Source: a virus. Taken from it: DNA of 54,320 nt. Location of the stretch: UHGV virus genome UHGV-1522278; one strand, given 5' to 3'. Below are positions 36,614 through 43,618 of this stretch, one piece after another (the stretch's first letter is position 1; the number at the start of each line of letters is the position of its first letter). The translations under genes were made by a program, and so were the position numbers. The notes beneath the pieces are model-generated. The model was not told the DNA's origin. It did not search any database and saw only the letters and a list, made by a program, of their open reading frames with translations.

Positions 36614-37294
36614 ATGATTCATGTTCGAACAGGACAATTTGCGGCTGTGGTCGATGGCAGGCGGTATGTGTTTAATCCCTGCTTTGCTGCAATGGCTAAG
36701 ATCGGCAGTGACAGGGAATTGGTCGAATACTTCGCAACTGTGCACGGTGGTAAATATCCACAGCGTTTGCCAACGGATCCAGACCTCCGCAATCGCATTA
36801 TGGCGCGTTGTTATGGTGAGTTAGTGCAAACGTCCATCCACGTCCTGAAATGTTGCTCAGAATGCGAAATAGGCCAGTTATTGGGCGAATGCAGCTTTAC
36901 TCCTTCGGGTAAGTTGAGACTGAAACCTGGGTTGATGCCCACCAGCGACGTTATCACGCTGGCGCAACACTGCATGTTCCACGGTTTAATTGGTGACGGT
37001 CCAGAGGAAGACACGGGCGAAAACCATGATGGCGAGTACAAGCCCACATTCGACATCCTCGAATATGTTTACTCCGCCGTTGCTCACCTGGGATTGTCTG
37101 AATCTGAAGCATGGGGCATGACAATGACCGGATATAGGGCCGCTGTACGAGCTAAAACGCCACCAGACGAAAGAAACGAGAAAGGTAAACCAAACGTTCA
37201 TATAAATAAACGTGATTATGATGAGCAAATGGAGGCCGCTAAAAGGGTGCTGGAATTGATGAAAAAACGCGAGCAAGAAAAAGCCCGGGGTTAG
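36614..37294 (+). CDS. tail assembly chaperone (putative)
   Basis: start at the ATG at 36614; between major tail and tape measure genes; no G/GT frameshift identified. Confidence 0.5.
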   Translation: MIHVRTGQFAAVVDGRRYVFNPCFAAMAKIGSDRELVEYFATVHGGKYPQRLPTDPDLRNRIMARCYGELVQTSIHVLKCCSECEIGQLLGECSFTPSGKLRLKPGLMPTSDVITLAQHCMFHGLIGDGPEEDTGENHDGEYKPTFDILEYVYSAVAHLGLSESEAWGMTMTGYRAAVRAKTPPDERNEKGKPNVHINKRDYDEQMEAAKRVLELMKKREQEKARG

Positions 37295-37334: not shown

Positions 37335-37751
37335 TTATCTGAACCTTACTATTTCAATTCTGCCGTTGCCCAAGTCAATGATGGCATGATTTTTTATACC
37401 CGCGCCGCCTTCGTTAAATATTCTTTCAGCAAATGCGGCTTTATCAGCGTTACACTCATTGGCTATTCTGTTTCTTATTTCATCGTTGCCTTCGAATACG
37501 ACGCCTACAGCAGCCTCCTTCACAAGCCCCCAGTTAAACCATCTTGCGTAAACTGGTTTACCTTCGAAATGCTTATCAATTGCTTCATAAAAAACCTTAA
37601 TGGCGGCCGGTTCCTTCTTGAAAATTTTATGGTATTCGGCAACGTTGTTTGCTACTTCATTGCAGTTTATGTTTATTGCTTCGTTTGCATTGGCGTTGAA
37701 TGCCATACCAACCATTACCGCCATCACCGCCGCTTTGATTAACCGTTTCAT
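37335..37751 (-). CDS. secreted protein of unknown function (minus-strand insert in the tail module)
   Basis: 138 aa; signal peptide MKRLIKAAVMAVMVGMAFNANA; two Cys; opposite strand to all flanking tail genes. Confidence 0.65.
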   Translation of the reverse strand: MKRLIKAAVMAVMVGMAFNANANEAININCNEVANNVAEYHKIFKKEPAAIKVFYEAIDKHFEGKPVYARWFNWGLVKEAAVGVVFEGNDEIRNRIANECNADKAAFAERIFNEGGAGIKNHAIIDLGNGRIEIVRFR

Positions 37752-38007: not shown

Positions 38008-40347
38008 ATGGCTACCAGTTTAGGTACAATTTATTACGAAGTCGATGCAAAAACTGGTCAGCTTCTTGTCGCTCAACGACAGGCAGACCAGGCTTTTGAC
38101 AGTATAGAACGCGGCGCAAAACGTGCTGACCGCCAGGTAAACACACTGAAGACATCAATCAAAGCACTGTCCAGGGTTATACATCTGCTACTTGCCGCAG
38201 AGGCTGTACGCCAGTTTATTGACATGGCGGAGCAAGCAAAAATGCTTCGCGTAAAAATCAAAATGCTTACTGGTGATGCAGAGGTCGCAGGACGTGTTTT
38301 CGATGGCCTGAAAGAAATATCAAAAGAAACCGGGCAAAGCCTGAAGGATACTGGCGAACTATGGCAAGGCCTGGCTATCTCACTGAAGAACACGTCAGCT
38401 ACGGATGGTCAATTGCTTAACCTGGTTGGCACGATTCAAAAGATGGGGGCGTTAGGCGGCGCGTCAGCGGAACAGATGTCTAATTCTATGCGCCAGTTCC
38501 GCCAGTCTATAGACGGTGGCGTTCTTCGTGCCGAAGAGTTTAACAGTCTGCTTGAAAACACGCCGACCATCGTACAGACAATGGCCCGCCATATGGGGTT
38601 GTCAATGGGTCAGTTCCGCGCCGAAATGCTGGACGGCAAGATCACGGCTGAAAGGATGGTTAACGCGATCCAGGCAGCTACACAGGAAACAAACGAGAAG
38701 TTTGCACAGTTGCCTCGCACATCCGGCAAGGCTATCAATGAGCTTAAAGTAGAGGTGATGGGGCTTGTTGAGCAACTGGATGATCTTTTCGGTGTATCAG
38801 ATGGCGTTGTGTCAGCTATCGACCTAATAACTGGCGGCGTTGAGGGATTAGGTAAAGGTGCAAAATTCGCCGCAACCTGTTTCAATACACTCAAAACCGC
38901 TGGCAGCGAGTTTATAGACATGTTTGACGACGTTGCTGTTAAAGCTGGTGAGGTGGCGGAAGAGATTATCAGGATGGTAACGCCAATAAAAGCGCTAATG
39001 GATGGCTACAAATGGATGAAGGAGATCATTGATAAACGCAAGGAAGAGCTAAACAGCAATAACGAGAAGAAATTCGGCCCCACCATTGGCAAATTCATGA
39101 CGTTTAAGAATGACATCGAAAAAGCAACTGCCGCTTATGATGAGTTCATGCAGAAACAGGGTGAGGCTAACGATGGCAAGATCACCGGATTCGATCAGCC
39201 AGTTGGTAAGCCGAAAAAACCGAAAAAACAAAAGAAATCTGAAGCTGATCGGCTTGGTGATGAAGGTATAAAAGTGTCCGACCAGTACAACAAGGACGCC
39301 GCCGCTATGCGTAAAGCACTGGAGAACGGCAAGGCCATTGATGCTGCATTCGCCCAGGGAAAAATAACCCTCCTTGAGTACAAGGCCGCGCAGAAAGGGA
39401 TAGGTAAGGAACTGAAGGACGAATTGGCCCAAATCCCGGTGGAAGAATTGCAAGACAAATGGGCGCACATAGTAAGCCCAATGGATCAACTTAAGGGCGA
39501 AATTGACCCCATCAAACAGGTGCAGAATGAGTGGGCCGTCAAAAAACAAATGCTGATAGACCTGGGCGCTACAGAAGCGCAACAGAAACAGGCGCTTTTG
39601 GAATATGAGCAACAGATACGAGATCTGAAGTGGGAACAATGGCAGGCGCAAAGCGACACGAATAGCCTAATCGGTGCTTGTGTTAGTGGCCTAAAAGGTG
39701 GCATGGGTAATGCGCTCACCGGCCTGTTAAACGGTACTCAATCATTAAGCGAGGTTTTCGCCAACCTGGGAAGCAGTATCCTCAATACCGTTGGCAACAA
39801 ACTATCAGAGATTGCCGCTAACTGGATAGCAGATCAATTGATGATGGAAACGCAAAGCAAGGCTACCCAGGCAAGTACAACTGCTGGCGCTGTGGCGGCG
39901 CAAGGTCAGATTGCTGCGGCGGCGGCCCCGGCTGCGGCTGCAACGGCTGCGTCAACTGGTGGTAGCTGGGCTGCGGCTGGTGCTGCGGCACTTTCTGCGA
40001 TCATGTCGCTGGCAACATCAATTTTTGGCGGCGGGCGTTATAATGGTGGTTCTGTAAATGGTGGCAGCCTGTATCGCGTAGGGGAACACGGGATTCCTGA
40101 GTTATTCCAGACGAGCAACGGGCGTCAGTATATGATTCCTGGGGAAAATGGCAGGGTTATTCCTGGCCGCGATCTCTTCAATGGTGGCGGCATCAATATG
40201 CCTGTTAACATCACAGTACAGACCACAAACGGATTTAGCGACGAAGACGGTCGCAGACTTGAACAGACGATGGAACGCGTAGCAATGAAAATGATGGCAA
40301 GGGAATCGCAACGACCGGGAGGAATGTTGCAACCGCGCCGCAAATAA
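38008..40347 (+). CDS. tail tape measure protein
   Basis: 779 aa; long helical protein with Ala/Gly-rich segment; position before the M/L/K/I/J-like genes. Confidence 0.85.
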   Translation: MATSLGTIYYEVDAKTGQLLVAQRQADQAFDSIERGAKRADRQVNTLKTSIKALSRVIHLLLAAEAVRQFIDMAEQAKMLRVKIKMLTGDAEVAGRVFDGLKEISKETGQSLKDTGELWQGLAISLKNTSATDGQLLNLVGTIQKMGALGGASAEQMSNSMRQFRQSIDGGVLRAEEFNSLLENTPTIVQTMARHMGLSMGQFRAEMLDGKITAERMVNAIQAATQETNEKFAQLPRTSGKAINELKVEVMGLVEQLDDLFGVSDGVVSAIDLITGGVEGLGKGAKFAATCFNTLKTAGSEFIDMFDDVAVKAGEVAEEIIRMVTPIKALMDGYKWMKEIIDKRKEELNSNNEKKFGPTIGKFMTFKNDIEKATAAYDEFMQKQGEANDGKITGFDQPVGKPKKPKKQKKSEADRLGDEGIKVSDQYNKDAAAMRKALENGKAIDAAFAQGKITLLEYKAAQKGIGKELKDELAQIPVEELQDKWAHIVSPMDQLKGEIDPIKQVQNEWAVKKQMLIDLGATEAQQKQALLEYEQQIRDLKWEQWQAQSDTNSLIGACVSGLKGGMGNALTGLLNGTQSLSEVFANLGSSILNTVGNKLSEIAANWIADQLMMETQSKATQASTTAGAVAAQGQIAAAAAPAAAATAASTGGSWAAAGAAALSAIMSLATSIFGGGRYNGGSVNGGSLYRVGEHGIPELFQTSNGRQYMIPGENGRVIPGRDLFNGGGINMPVNITVQTTNGFSDEDGRRLEQTMERVAMKMMARESQRPGGMLQPRRK

Positions 40348-40351
40348 ACAA

Positions 40352-40381
40352 AACCCCGGTACAATGCCGGGGTTATCTTTT
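40352..40381. terminator. bidirectional rho-independent terminator
   Basis: AACCCCGG-tacaatg-CCGGGGTT with T/A-rich flanks on both strands. Confidence 0.55.
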
Positions 40382-40556
40382 AGTTATTCTCAAAACTTGT
40401 ATATCCTCTTTCAATTTTCCCTCCGTGTACACTTCTGGCAAATACCGCGTCAGTATACCTGAAAAATGGGCATGTATATGTATCCCCTTTACTATCCATA
40501 TATTTTAGCACCCACGCCATACGTTTTACGTTGCTTTTATTTGCCGGGTTTTTCAT
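40380..40556 (-). CDS. small protein (58 aa), last gene of minus-strand cassette B
   Basis: GGAGG RBS; MKNPANKSNVKRMAWVLKYMDSKGDTYTCPFFRY... Confidence 0.4.
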   Translation of the reverse strand: MKNPANKSNVKRMAWVLKYMDSKGDTYTCPFFRYTDAVFARSVHGGKIERGYTSFENN

Positions 40557-40574
40557 TTTATTTTCCTCCGCAAA

Positions 40575-40667
40575 TCACAATCTTCCGTTTCTTGCTACAT
40601 AGCTGCGAGCAAACATCACCTGCCAGATGTTCCAGATCTCCCTCCAGGTGAATTTATCGTCATCCAT
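40575..40667 (-). CDS. micro-ORF (30 aa) in cassette B
   Basis: GAGGTGA RBS overlapping the upstream stop; Trp-rich MDDDKFTWREIWNIWQVMF... Confidence 0.25.
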   Translation of the reverse strand: MDDDKFTWREIWNIWQVMFARSYVARNGRL

Positions 40668-40675
40668 ATTTCACC

Positions 40676-40930
40676 TCATTTATGTGCCCCTTTTACGCCA
40701 CAGTGGCGGTTGTATTCCAGATGGTCAATAATTAACCACATCTTTAGATCTTCGCTGAATAACCGCCAATCGGGGTTGATGTCAAATTTATAACCGTAGC
40801 CATCGCGTAATTTTTTGGGGTTGGCCTCTTTTTTCAGGAAAGCATTTAATAAAGCCTTGCCTTTTTTGATGATCCGTTCCTGGGCGTTTTTCTGTGCTTT
40901 CAGGTTTTTGCCAATCATTACCAATTTCAT
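40676..40930 (-). CDS. hypothetical protein (84 aa, Lys-rich N-terminus) in cassette B
   Basis: GGGGTGAG RBS; no motif recognised. Confidence 0.55.
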   Translation of the reverse strand: MKLVMIGKNLKAQKNAQERIIKKGKALLNAFLKKEANPKKLRDGYGYKFDINPDWRLFSEDLKMWLIIDHLEYNRHCGVKGAHK

Positions 40931-40950
40931 AACTCACCCCACGCAATCAA

Positions 40951-41106
40951 TCAGTTGACCACTTTCAGGAAGAAATCACGGTATTCATCTTCTTTTGCAT
41001 TCATCATAAATTGACCGTATTTGAATGCATCATCAAAACCCTTCACAATCGCAACTTCCACCTGTTCGAATGCTTTGTTTAGCATTACCACTACATAGCG
41101 TTCCAT
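40951..41106 (-). CDS. small protein (51 aa), first gene of cassette B
   Basis: AAGGAGG RBS; MERYVVVMLNKAFEQVEVAIVKGFDDAFKYGQFMMNAKEDEYRDFFLKVVN. Confidence 0.4.
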   Translation of the reverse strand: MERYVVVMLNKAFEQVEVAIVKGFDDAFKYGQFMMNAKEDEYRDFFLKVVN

Positions 41107-41275
41107 ATTGGCCTCCTTTGTTGGTGCTGCTTTCTCTTCTTGATTTCTATATACATCTTGTCACGTCATGTGTGAAGCCGTTTTGTAAACTGGGTATAAT
41201 TCTTGTGACAAAGTTCTCATTTTTCGCGTAGAAGCGCGTAAAGATGTATGCAATATGTAACTTATAGGGGGAATC

Positions 41276-41629
41276 ATGCCGGAAGTTTTCAGATGGACGC
41301 CGCAAAGAAGCTACAGCGTGACCAGGGAACCAAATGTGTCAGTCGTTAAACTTGGTGATGGTTATGAGCAAAGGCAGGCAAAAGGTATCAACACATTACT
41401 TGATAGCTACACCCTGGTTTTTAAAGGCAGTAGCGCAGGATGCGGTGATAGCGGGAACGTAGCGATCCAGGCGGAAGCATTCTTGAGGGCGCGCGGCGCT
41501 GTCGAGGCTTTCTACTGGACGCCGTCGATGGATAGGGTGCAAAGGCTTTTCGTTTGCCGTAGCTGGAGTATGACTAAGGACGGACCTGTGTACACGCTAA
41601 ACGCAACGTTTGAACAAGTTGTTGGCTAA
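41276..41629 (+). CDS. M: minor tail protein M (lambda gpM-like)
   Basis: 117 aa; alignable to lambda M (FRW...GDGY.QR......FEQVV). Confidence 0.85.
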   Translation: MPEVFRWTPQRSYSVTREPNVSVVKLGDGYEQRQAKGINTLLDSYTLVFKGSSAGCGDSGNVAIQAEAFLRARGAVEAFYWTPSMDRVQRLFVCRSWSMTKDGPVYTLNATFEQVVG

Positions 41630-41826
41630 TGGAGGTTGTTATGTACGGGACTTGTGTAGTTGACAAAACTGACGCTTTTACATTGTTTGACGACTATGAG
41701 ATCAACGACCTTACTGTAAAGGCTGACAATGGCGATACCTGGTATCTTCATGATGTTGGTGACGGGTATGTGGGATGCAGATCCAGGGAAGGCAAGGAGG
41801 TTTTATTTTTGGTTGATGGCGTGTAA
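41629..41826 (+). CDS. hypothetical protein
   Basis: 65-aa ORF coupled to the M gene stop, followed by a terminator. Confidence 0.45.
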   Translation: MEVVMYGTCVVDKTDAFTLFDDYEINDLTVKADNGDTWYLHDVGDGYVGCRSREGKEVLFLVDGV

Positions 41827-41830
41827 TAAC

Positions 41831-41856
41831 AACCCCGCTTCTCGCGGGGTTTTCTT
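41831..41856. terminator. bidirectional rho-independent terminator (near-identical copy at 50286-50313)
   Basis: AACCCCGC-ttctc-GCGGGGTT followed by TTTCTT. Confidence 0.6.
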
Positions 41857-41857
41857 G

Positions 41858-41995
41858 TCAGTAGTTAATGTAAATCAAACTCATTGGGTGAGCGTGCGCC
41901 ATATTATTGGCTATCGCCGCCCAATCCCAATCAGCAGCGTGAACGCCAAATACTATAAGTCCCATTATTATTAGCGCCAAAACTTCTATTTTCAT
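41858..41995 (-). CDS. small secreted/membrane peptide (45 aa), last gene of cassette C
   Basis: AGGTGA RBS; signal-peptide-like MKIEVLALIIMGLIVFGVHA then a Trp/His-rich tail. Confidence 0.35.
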   Translation of the reverse strand: MKIEVLALIIMGLIVFGVHAADWDWAAIANNMAHAHPMSLIYINY

Positions 41996-42005
41996 AATCT
42001 GTCAC

Positions 42006-42254
42006 CTATAAGTTATCACGCAGATAATTAACGCCCTTATCAGTGACGAATGAATGGTTAACCTGGTTTTCATCCGTCATGATGATGAATAACTTTTCCT
42101 GTAGGTATTTCGCTTTTGGGTACAGTGTTAAACAGACTTGATACAGTATCCCGCGCTCAATCAGCAAATCAATAAATTCGTGTTCATGATAACCGATGAG
42201 GCGGGCGGCCTGTTTCAACGTGTACACATAATCGCCGTGATTGCGCCGCCCCAT
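42006..42254 (-). CDS. hypothetical protein with HTH-like segment (82 aa) in cassette C
   Basis: YTLKQAARLIGYHEHEFIDLLIERGIL resembles an HTH. Confidence 0.55.
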   Translation of the reverse strand: MGRRNHGDYVYTLKQAARLIGYHEHEFIDLLIERGILYQVCLTLYPKAKYLQEKLFIIMTDENQVNHSFVTDKGVNYLRDNL

Positions 42255-42263
42255 GTTGCCGCC

Positions 42264-42614
42264 TTATTTATCGAATGCGCCCAGGTTATCTATGCAGAAA
42301 TCTTTTGCCGCTTTTTCGTATTCGCGTTTTGCTTGCGGATCGTCTGCCGGGAAACCTTTTGCGTGTATTTCACCAGGGCAAGACTGATCCATAGAGTCAG
42401 CAAGGTTAACATTGACATTGAAATTGACATCTTTCGGGTTCATCTCTTCCACCTTATCCGGTACTTGTACTGGAACAACATAATAATAACGAGCATTAGA
42501 CCAACAGCGCAGTAATTCACGACCTTCATCACACGCTGATTCATATGTATCAAATAGCCCCATGCGTTCCCATTCGTATTTATCAGTCCACACGTCTAAT
42601 CTGTATTTTTCCAT
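42264..42614 (-). CDS. hypothetical protein (116 aa) in cassette C
   Basis: no motif recognised; tightly packed with neighbours (9- and 15-nt gaps). Confidence 0.55.
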   Translation of the reverse strand: MEKYRLDVWTDKYEWERMGLFDTYESACDEGRELLRCWSNARYYYVVPVQVPDKVEEMNPKDVNFNVNVNLADSMDQSCPGEIHAKGFPADDPQAKREYEKAAKDFCIDNLGAFDK

Positions 42615-42629
42615 TTTTTGTTATAACCC

Positions 42630-42785
42630 TCATTTGACAGGTTCGATCCTGTACCCCAAAACGCGTTCGTCTTCAGCGAGTAAGAGCGCGTCGGTAAGTG
42701 CCTCGCCTTCATCTTTATACAGGGCCACAGTCATTTTCCTGCCATCCGCAAGGAACACCGTCAACCTCCACACCTTGTCATCCAT
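42630..42785 (-). CDS. small protein (51 aa), first gene of cassette C
   Basis: start at the ATG at 42785 with GGAGGTG RBS; MDDKVWRLTVFLADGRKMTVALYKDEGEALTDALLLAEDERVLGYRIEPVK. Confidence 0.45.
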   Translation of the reverse strand: MDDKVWRLTVFLADGRKMTVALYKDEGEALTDALLLAEDERVLGYRIEPVK

Positions 42786-42913
42786 TTCACACCTCCGCGC
42801 CATTTTGTTAACCATGCTTCCTTTTGAGTACAATATACATATTGTAAAAAACGCGATCAACCGTTTTGGCATGATTTAGCGTGATTTAGATCACAAAATG
42901 ACAAGGTGATAAA

Positions 42914-43618
42914 ATGCGCAGCATACCTACAGAAATGATTATTGATTCCGTGGATGCCGGAGTCGGCGCGGTCATTGACTTATTTGAACTGGACCTCACG
43001 CCCCTGGGTGGCGAGGTTATCCGCTTCCATTCCGGCGCGAATGGTTATTACGGCCCTGTTATCTGGAAGGGATTGGCTTACAACAGCTACCCAATCGAGG
43101 CTACCGGCTTCGAAATGAAAAACGAAGGCGTTTACTCACGCCCCCAAATGGTCGTAGCCAACATTGGCGGCCTAATCACTGGGATGAATAACGATTTTAA
43201 CGACCTGCGAGGAATGAAGGTTACGCGCCGCCAGGTGGAAGTAAAATACCTGGATGCTGTTAACTTCCCCAATGGCAACCCGGATGCAGATCCGTCTATC
43301 GAGGCGGTATCTTTTTACGTCGTTGAGGCGATGAGCGAAGAAACAGCCGACCAGGTGCAATATGAACTGTCAACGCCAATTGATGCTGACAAGGCTGTTA
43401 TCCCTGGGCGCACAATCCTCGCTGACGTTTGCCAGTGGCAATATCGCGGCGACGGTTGCAGATACAGTGGCGGCCCTGTAGCCACTGACAAAGACGAGCC
43501 AACCAGTGATCCGAAGCTGGATAAATGCAGCCACCGCCTGAGCGGTTGCCGTTTGCGATTCCCGCGCCCGAATCCGTTACCGATTTCATGTTTCCCCGGA
43601 TCAAGTAAGGTCGGTTGA
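42914..43618 (+). CDS. L: minor tail protein L (lambda gpL-like)
   Basis: 234 aa; gpL-like sequence with C-terminal Cys cluster (CQWQYRGDGC...CSHRLSGC). Confidence 0.85.
   Translation: MRSIPTEMIIDSVDAGVGAVIDLFELDLTPLGGEVIRFHSGANGYYGPVIWKGLAYNSYPIEATGFEMKNEGVYSRPQMVVANIGGLITGMNNDFNDLRGMKVTRRQVEVKYLDAVNFPNGNPDADPSIEAVSFYVVEAMSEETADQVQYELSTPIDADKAVIPGRTILADVCQWQYRGDGCRYSGGPVATDKDEPTSDPKLDKCSHRLSGCRLRFPRPNPLPISCFPGSSKVG

Follow-up and report, generated by a model that had tools for sequence, protein, structure and literature searches.

Why does a temperate phage carry a cassette of four very small genes that faces backward between two of its tail genes, and is one of these genes a toxin? The question is raised by positions 40352-41275 of the UHGV virus genome UHGV-1522278, whose 54,320 nucleotides (nt) are here called the window. 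The window is a temperate Escherichia coli phage or prophage of the mEp021 group (mEpimmI), and its cassette region shares 95.5% identity with the phages mEp010 and mEp044 and 98.5% with a prophage in E. coli WCHEC025970. On the minus strand, the cassette encodes products of 51, 84, 30 and 58 amino acids (aa), in this order, and the 84-aa product has the fold of the RelE/ParE toxin superfamily. Tentatively, we prefer the view that the cassette is a moron expressed in the lysogen, with a RelE/ParE-fold effector that is restrained by the 51-aa product, the 30-aa product, or both. As it stands, the locus is an unsurprising moron; the Pfam family and the RefSeq label of the effector already exist, and toxin-like morons in tail regions are well known. 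What is worth following is a toxin-fold gene that also occurs without its partner, a family that is confined to phages, and a conserved 30-aa microprotein. Should the 84-aa protein be active as a RelE-type toxin and be expressed in lysogens, the cassette would be a compact candidate for prophage-encoded exclusion or abortive infection, in a phage group whose prevalence in the human gut has been reported.

The four products and the fold of the 84-aa protein

The first gene of the operon (40951-41106, minus strand as all four) encodes the acidic 51-aa protein (isoelectric point, pI, 4.85) and begins with an ATG 5 nt behind an AAGGAGG. It is followed by the gene of the basic 84-aa protein (40676-40930; pI 9.91), which has the Shine-Dalgarno (SD) sequence GGGGTGAG, by the gene of a Trp-rich 30-aa microprotein (40575-40667; MDDDKFTWREIWNIWQVMFARSYVARNGRL, with the sequence ends FTWREIWNIW...RNGRL), and by the open reading frame (ORF) of a basic 58-aa protein (40380-40556; pI 9.7), which has a GGAGGA ribosome-binding site (RBS) and belongs to the variable cargo of the locus. 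The intergenic gaps are 20, 8 and 18 nt, and the SD sequence of the 30-aa gene, GAGGTGA, overlaps the stop codon of the 84-aa gene. ORF coordinates, SD-like sites and gaps thus agree with the first-pass annotation of the window, which had described four minus-strand ORFs with good RBSs and a spacing of 8-20 nt.

To judge from their codon statistics, the four ORFs are real genes under purifying selection. The proteins were located in 13 annotated relatives, which gave 5-13 distinct related sequences per gene, and the median ratios of nonsynonymous to synonymous substitution rates (dN/dS) are 0.045 (51 aa), 0.063 (84 aa), 0.116 (30 aa) and 0.173 (58 aa). Differences at codon positions 1/2/3 amount to 64/22/346 for the 51-aa gene, 913/883/2735 for the 84-aa gene, 191/80/425 for the 30-aa gene and 30/28/102 for the 58-aa gene. 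The 30-aa ORF can be aligned without gaps over its full length at 73-97% identity in 12 of the 13 annotated relatives. In all four genes, the differences are concentrated at the third position.

What kind of protein is the 84-aa product? It matches the Pfam family PF24732 (ParE_like) with 45.8 bits at a cut-off of 24.4 (E 6e-12; profile positions 2-67 of 67), and is thus a direct member over the full profile of the same family as a gene of the Klebsiella jumbo phage Muenster that is annotated as "putative YafQ-like ribonuclease toxin". RefSeq and UniRef name the 84-aa protein "ParE family toxin-like protein", and its relatives are already annotated as PF24732. The first-pass annotation had recognized no motif in any of the products and had stated that no RelE/ParE signature is visible. 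For the 84-aa protein this is wrong, as the curated PF24732 cut-off is exceeded and the predicted fold resembles RelE, YoeB, YafQ and HigB; homology to a known family, which the annotation had itself set as a criterion, is therefore given. The idea of a toxin-antitoxin-like arrangement, which had been raised together with these statements, is in fact strengthened, because a ParE_like match is now combined with a RelE-type fold.

The fold assignment is based on an AlphaFold model that was calculated with a 19-sequence alignment including distant family members and that reached a predicted local distance difference test score (pLDDT) of 88 and a predicted template modeling score (pTM) of 0.76. 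An earlier model, built with 15 sequences that were all at least 69% identical, had a pLDDT of 54 and was discarded. The predicted topology is beta-beta-alpha-beta-beta-beta-alpha, and the model shows the arrangement that defines the RelE/ParE fold, i.e. an N-terminal helix or helices on a three- to five-stranded antiparallel sheet. In comparison to YoeB, YafQ, HigB, RelE and ParE, there is only one N-terminal helix instead of two, and there is an extra N-terminal beta-hairpin. In structural comparisons, the ribonuclease (RNase)-type toxins RelE, YoeB, YafQ and HigB rank above ParE, and the same toxin families top the Foldseek list at values that are not significant (E > 0.1, template modeling score, TM, 0.4-0.5). 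In a viral structure library, three small proteins match the model well (TM 0.71-0.84). Across the PF24732 members compared, K40, L41, R56, H70 and N74 are invariant, and the composition of this set would fit RNase-type toxins better than ParE. We tentatively consider an activity as an mRNA endonuclease of the YoeB/YafQ/RelE type most likely, and a gyrase poisoning of the ParE type less likely.

At the sequence level the family is narrow, with no more than 9 proteins at E <= 0.001 in an exhaustive search of representatives. In the PDB, neither sequence nor profile searches gave a credible match for the family of the 84-aa protein or for that of the 51-aa protein, and none of the four proteins has a match in NCBIfam or PADLOC (the latter at E <= 1). 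The 51-aa protein matches only phrog_29810. For the 30-aa peptide and the 58-aa protein, no relatives of known function were found in Pfam, PHROG, NCBIfam and PADLOC, and the 58-aa protein has a weak PHROG match only, with no match in Pfam.

Operon anatomy and position in the mEp021 group

The cassette lies between the tape-measure gene (779 aa; 38008-40347, plus strand) and a gpM-type minor tail gene (PF05939, E 2e-29; 41276-41629, plus strand). Its GC content is 40.3%, compared to 50-53% in the flanking tail genes. At its downstream end, a bidirectional intrinsic terminator (40352-40374), which was found by consensus scan and folding, is common to the tape-measure gene on the plus strand and to the cassette on the minus strand. 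The G+C-rich hairpin begins 5 nt past the last stop codon of the cassette and scores on both strands, as the first-pass annotation had proposed; as minus-strand RNA it has 8 G+C-rich pairs followed by UUUUGUUUAUUU and is more stable than 99% of shuffled sequences (z = -2.8).

At the upstream end, the predicted sigma-70 promoter of the cassette consists of a -35 hexamer TTCACA (41176-41171), a spacing of 17 nt and a -10 hexamer TATATA (41153-41148) on the minus strand. TTCACA, the 17-nt spacing and TATATA or TATACA are conserved in 14 aligned loci, the sequence between the hexamers varies, and the hexamers are kept even in the lineage that has lost the 51-aa gene. On the basis of this conservation pattern we predict that the hexamers are the cassette promoter, which a stringent consensus scan missed owing to the A at the end of the -10 hexamer. 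The perfect TATAAT to which the first-pass annotation had pointed instead is not the cassette promoter, as it resides on the plus strand (41195-41200) and faces gpM.

Is the cassette an occasional insertion? For this question we compared 58 loci, namely 13 annotated relatives, 44 IMG/VR contigs and the window itself. The place of the cassette, between the tape-measure gene and gpM, is the same in all 58. An intact 84-aa gene was found in 57 of them, the remaining one having a frameshift within a homopolymer run, and the 51-aa gene is intact in 54, in each case adjoining an intact 84-aa gene; a 51-aa gene without an 84-aa gene was never seen. About 36 of the 58 loci have the 30-aa gene, and about 29 have the 58-aa gene. 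About 22 loci do not have the 30-aa gene (e.g. MS 21-1 and L049-L059), and in about 15, again including MS 21-1, the 51/84 pair stands alone. The constant core therefore consists of the promoter, the 51-aa gene and the 84-aa gene, and behind the 84-aa gene there is a hot spot for cargo that differs among relatives. Counted by source, the related loci with the 84-aa gene at this position come from 7 phages, from 45 IMG/VR contigs and from 32 out of 32 complete E. coli genomes that were found to contain the flanking tail genes. Because of the latter result, the cassette has to be regarded as an accessory feature that is fixed in the group, rather than as a sporadic insertion. The first-pass annotation had spoken of an insert and had suggested a comparison with insert-free relatives, but every related locus that was recovered carries the 84-aa gene at this place.

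The proposed character of a moron-type accessory module stands, as the opposite strand, own promoter-like hexamers and terminator, low GC content and variable 3' cargo all agree with it. Classical HK97/lambda-type morons are described as units with their own promoter and terminator that lie between structural genes, have a lower GC content and vary in content (PMC3594210). With its predicted promoter, the cassette would be the same type of unit, and it shows the deviating GC content and the presence/absence variation of phage morons, although the 51/84 core is nearly universal and occurs in almost every group member, which is different from the sporadic distribution of the classical cases.

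A restrained or a solitary effector?

How would such a cassette work? In the mechanism that we tentatively prefer, the sigma-70 promoter at about 41176-41148 would drive transcription of the 51-, 84-, 30- and 58-aa genes, in this order, up to the shared bidirectional terminator. With a predicted promoter and a terminator of its own, the cassette could be active in the lysogen. In the lytic cycle, antiterminated late transcription would cross the cassette in the opposite direction and thereby silence it; N-like and Q-like antitermination have been described for the mEpimmI group (mEpimmI paper). The 84-aa protein would be the working part, a minimal representative of the RelE/ParE-superfamily toxin fold that may inhibit translation as an mRNA endonuclease of the YoeB/YafQ/RelE type, and the acidic 51-aa protein, possibly together with the translationally coupled 30-aa peptide, would bind and restrain it. 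The module could then serve as a toxin-antitoxin-like device for exclusion, abortive infection or the control of phage production, and would not be a strict addiction module. A precedent for the regulatory part is the non-contiguous Tai/Ati operon of phi80, in which a defence gene lies antisense in the Q-dependent late operon, is constitutive in the lysogen and is reduced under late transcription (PMC11364771). The logic of an antisense embedding in the structural-gene region is the same, whereas the phi80 protein TaiEcA is a 26-kDa tail-assembly blocker that is unrelated to the 84-aa protein in size and fold, and no counter-defence partner was recognized in the sense-strand operon of the window.

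The layout of the core is that of type II toxin-antitoxin systems, with 51 aa followed by 84 aa, both genes co-directional, one promoter-like site and one terminator, and the complementary pI values (4.85 versus 9.91) are a hint that the two proteins may bind each other. A linked function is furthermore suggested by the 51-aa gene itself, because it is strongly conserved and exclusive to the position upstream of the 84-aa gene, being restricted to mEp021-group phages and always found directly upstream of the 84-aa gene there.

Several observations weigh against a dedicated antitoxin. In UMNK88 and in the IMG/VR contigs L035 and L037, the 51-aa gene is precisely missing, with the promoter region and a strong AAAGGGGGA RBS being fused directly to an intact 84-aa gene. 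The 84-aa protein of L035 has the consensus sequence, and between the 84-aa genes of L035 and L037, 7 codons differ synonymously and 2 non-synonymously, from which it can be concluded that the gene has been constrained since the loss of the 51-aa gene. In L021 (E. coli MFDS1019527), the 51-aa gene is frameshifted and the 84-aa gene again intact. A toxin gene is not expected to be kept intact without its antitoxin, and in these four loci it is. For L021, we note in addition that the frameshift is a 1-nt deletion at codon 5 (around 2484-2500 of the contig), and that its 84-aa protein carries a P53H exchange that is unique in comparison to the closest allele, L020; this exchange could be a compensating attenuation or a coincidence. 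Where both genes are present, they do not co-vary: one and the same 51-aa protein, WP_001329613.1, occurs beside 84-aa alleles whose identity to the protein of the window is 62%, 77% and 89%. Searches of Pfam, PHROG, NCBIfam, PADLOC and PDB revealed neither an antitoxin signature nor a DNA-binding one for the 51-aa protein, no conserved operator palindrome is found in the 14 aligned loci, and hence the DNA-binding antitoxin with a conserved palindromic operator that characterizes type II systems is not seen here. For the 84-aa protein itself, neither sequence searches nor profile comparisons gave a significant similarity to YoeB, YafQ or ParE (that of RK2 in the profile comparison, for which approximate toxin sequences were used). 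The toxin-antitoxin-like layout that the first-pass annotation had seen in the 51/84 pair can therefore be upheld only in part: order, sizes, charges and the RelE-type fold agree with it, but a canonical pair is not supported, given the loss of the 51-aa gene, the absence of an antitoxin domain and operator, and the phage-only family. Apart from the operator, the same points also set the 84-aa protein off from known type II toxins.

The distribution of PF24732 points in the same direction. Members of the family were found only in phages, with no match among 72,556 plasmids, and they occur in about 70 lytic jumbo myoviruses (e.g. phAPEC6, K64-1/RaK2, GAP32). PF24732 genes are also present in the phage Sortsne and the Kosakonia phage Kc237, which have genomes of about 41 kb with the gene about 4 kb from the start of the record, in contig L011 beside a gene of the T7 gp0.4 family, and in arrays of small genes that are weakly similar to coliphages of about 150 kb. 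The distant genes have different, unrelated neighbors in each group, and no co-occurring partner family could be recognized. In the jumbo, T7-like and ~150-kb-coliphage-like contigs, the gene is located among co-directional small genes, whereas in the window it takes the second place in an antisense moron of a temperate phage. No experimental work on PF24732 was found in the literature, and the mEpimmI paper does not discuss the cassette genes.

What alternatives exist, then, for a restrained effector? It is quite possible, and the rival that we take most seriously, that the 84-aa protein is a solitary, phage-only RelE-fold effector that acts on host or phage mRNA or translation, and that the 51-, 30- and 58-aa products are independent and merely share the operon. 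The lysogen would tolerate the 84-aa protein at its native expression level, and lytic phages would make it early. The persistence of an intact 84-aa gene and promoter after the loss of the 51-aa gene speaks for this, as do the free reassortment of 51- and 84-aa alleles, the occurrence of the family in about 70 lytic jumbo phages, in Sortsne and Kc237 and in the contig with the T7 gp0.4 neighbor, the neighbors that change from group to group, and the missing plasmid copies. RegB of T4 is an example of a phage RNase that has a YoeB/RelE-like fold and acts on its own. A solitary effector would, however, leave unexplained why the 51-aa gene, at a dN/dS of 0.045, is found only directly upstream of the 84-aa gene, and why the charges of the two proteins are complementary and the genes tightly packed. 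Moreover, a constitutive RelE-type RNase in a lysogen would be expected to require some restraint.

A more far-reaching scenario is, in our view, speculative and rather unlikely. PF24732 proteins would be phage-specific, stand-alone RelE-fold endoribonucleases that lytic jumbo and T7-like phages use early and without antitoxin for reprogramming host translation. The mEp021 group would have captured one of them into an antisense, lysogen-expressed cassette, in which interchangeable 51-aa and 30-aa partners restrain it, and the cassette would act as a switch for superinfection exclusion or phage production that is turned off by late transcription. The occurrence of the family in strictly lytic phages in any case raises the question of whether RelE-fold "toxins" began as, or double as, RNases for host takeover. 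The natural variants of the locus (the pair, the pair with the 30-aa gene, and an 84-aa gene that lacks its 51-aa neighbor) are ready genetic controls for the question of how a toxin fold is tolerated without a dedicated antitoxin.

The restraint could also come from the other side of the effector gene. In a toxin-first arrangement similar to HigBA, the Trp-rich 30-aa peptide would neutralize the 84-aa protein, and the 51-aa protein would be a regulator or a redundant neutralizer. The overlap of the 30-aa RBS with the 84-aa stop codon, the 8-nt gap and the strong conservation of the peptide would fit, and all four loci without an intact 51-aa gene retain the 30-aa gene. This retention is not significant, because there are only two independent losses and because the 30-aa gene is present in about 62% of the loci anyway. 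As furthermore about 22 of the 58 loci do without the 30-aa gene, and as an HNH endonuclease gene splits the 84-aa gene from the 30-aa gene in L016 and L061, we regard a toxin-first system as improbable. In each of the 58 loci, at least one of the 51-aa and 30-aa genes accompanies the 84-aa gene, and this constant company is compatible with a redundancy of the two, but statistically weak.

Even less probable is a canonical type II addiction system, in which the 51-aa protein would be an obligate, labile antitoxin that regulates its own expression, and the 84-aa protein would poison gyrase as ParE does and stabilize the prophage by killing cells that have lost it. Gene order, sizes and charges, the "ParE" labels of Pfam and RefSeq and the location in a prophage would all be in line with such a system, but there are viable, diverging lineages without the 51-aa gene, there is neither a DNA-binding domain nor a conserved operator, ParE structures rank below RNase-type toxins, and members of the family occur in strictly lytic phages but were not found on plasmids. 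Known prophage systems of this kind also differ in detail. The partners of PaaR2-PaaA2-ParE2 from E. coli O157:H7 prophages are unrelated in sequence to the products of the cassette, gene order and number are different, and ParE2 ranks below RNase-type toxins in the comparison with the 84-aa protein. In case of PfiT/PfiA from Pseudomonas Pf4, the phage is a filamentous single-stranded DNA phage, PfiA is a defined antitoxin, and the structural match is weak.

That some or all of the short ORFs, chiefly those of 30 and 58 aa, are chance frames in a non-coding spacer is hardly credible, since the lack of RefSeq annotation for these two in the 98.5%-identical prophage and the lack of family matches for their products are opposed by a third-position-biased divergence with dN/dS values of 0.12-0.17, by ungapped full-length conservation although the cassette DNA of relatives is only about 82-87% identical, and by an RBS in front of each.

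Cargo genes, spacer elements and further antisense islands

The cargo slot of the cassette contains several genes that the window does not have. In 21 of the 58 loci, a gene for an acidic protein of 59-60 aa (MVIHETEECRSINLSIEDDGRLWIV...; in mEp010, L001 3081-3263) is found between the 58-aa gene and the tape-measure terminator; it has no Pfam match and is absent from the window. The above-mentioned HNH endonuclease gene lies exactly between the 84- and 30-aa genes in L016 (2688-3170; E. coli E21845/O/A) and in L061, and the same insertion has been recorded for mEp515. In mEp021 (L002), the same slot harbors a gene with a T5orf172 domain and another one that encodes repeated treble-clef zinc fingers (DUF4379/CapR homology). 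As HNH, T5orf172 and zinc-finger genes sit there, the 3' end of the cassette appears to be a landing site for homing-endonuclease-like genes.

Around distant PF24732 genes, the jumbo-like contigs L003 (2607-2957) and L007 (1606-1962) encode a conserved protein of 116-118 aa directly upstream of the PF24732 gene, with the motif ATRD[LI]AR...GKEAPKG.RWAVQF and in two diverged lineages. In L003, a 198-aa gene follows the gene of this protein, and a protein kinase is annotated in the corresponding region of K64-1. The motif "VHGGK(M)IER", which the 58-aa protein has in common with the product of a gene downstream of a distant PF24732 member, was rejected as a 17-residue match at chance level.

In the 169-bp spacer upstream of the cassette, the first-pass annotation had pointed to an inverted repeat (41158-41164/41205-41211). 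The repeat does exist, with 7 base pairs (bp), but an equal repeat arises in 30% of shuffles of the spacer, and in the 14-locus alignment it is perfect only in the window and its 98.5%-identical relative, for which reasons we rejected it as an operator. The perfect TATAAT on the plus strand is a candidate divergent promoter toward gpM, and its reverse complement, ATTATA, is invariant in the 14 loci. The best -35 candidate for it, GTGAAG (41172-41177), overlaps the -35 hexamer of the predicted cassette promoter, and the two divergent promoters might therefore exclude each other. The TATAAT may be an internal promoter for gpM and a 65-aa gene, with a transcription unit that ends at a terminator at 41831-41851. 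In the gpM leader, a direct repeat CGCGTA-N4-CGCGTA (41225-41240, plus strand; TACGCG-N4-TACGCG on the minus strand) is almost invariant in the 14 loci amid varying surroundings. As its RNA hairpin is not unusually stable (z = -0.7), this repeat is more likely a protein-binding DNA site. Rfam gave no match within 40000-43200.

The cassette is not the only backward-facing element of the tail module. A second antisense cassette (41858-42872, minus strand), bounded by the terminator at 41831-41851, lies between gpL on one side and gpM with the 65-aa gene on the other, and encodes a hydrophobic 45-aa peptide, an 82-aa KilAC/Ant-like protein (PF03374, E 7e-7), a 116-aa protein (phrog_38567) and an 80-aa protein. 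This cassette is not constant among relatives, and the prophage of E. coli MS 21-1 lacks it completely. A third antisense ORF of 138 aa (37335-37751, minus strand; no Pfam match) is situated between a DUF6246 gene (36605-37294) and the tape-measure gene, and is annotated in mEp010 as mEp010_97, where it is flanked by predicted terminators. With this ORF added to the two cassettes, the tail module has three backward-facing islands. The 65-aa ORF itself (41629-41826, plus strand; phrog_3249, E 1.5e-22) overlaps the stop codon of gpM (ATGA) and is annotated in relatives.

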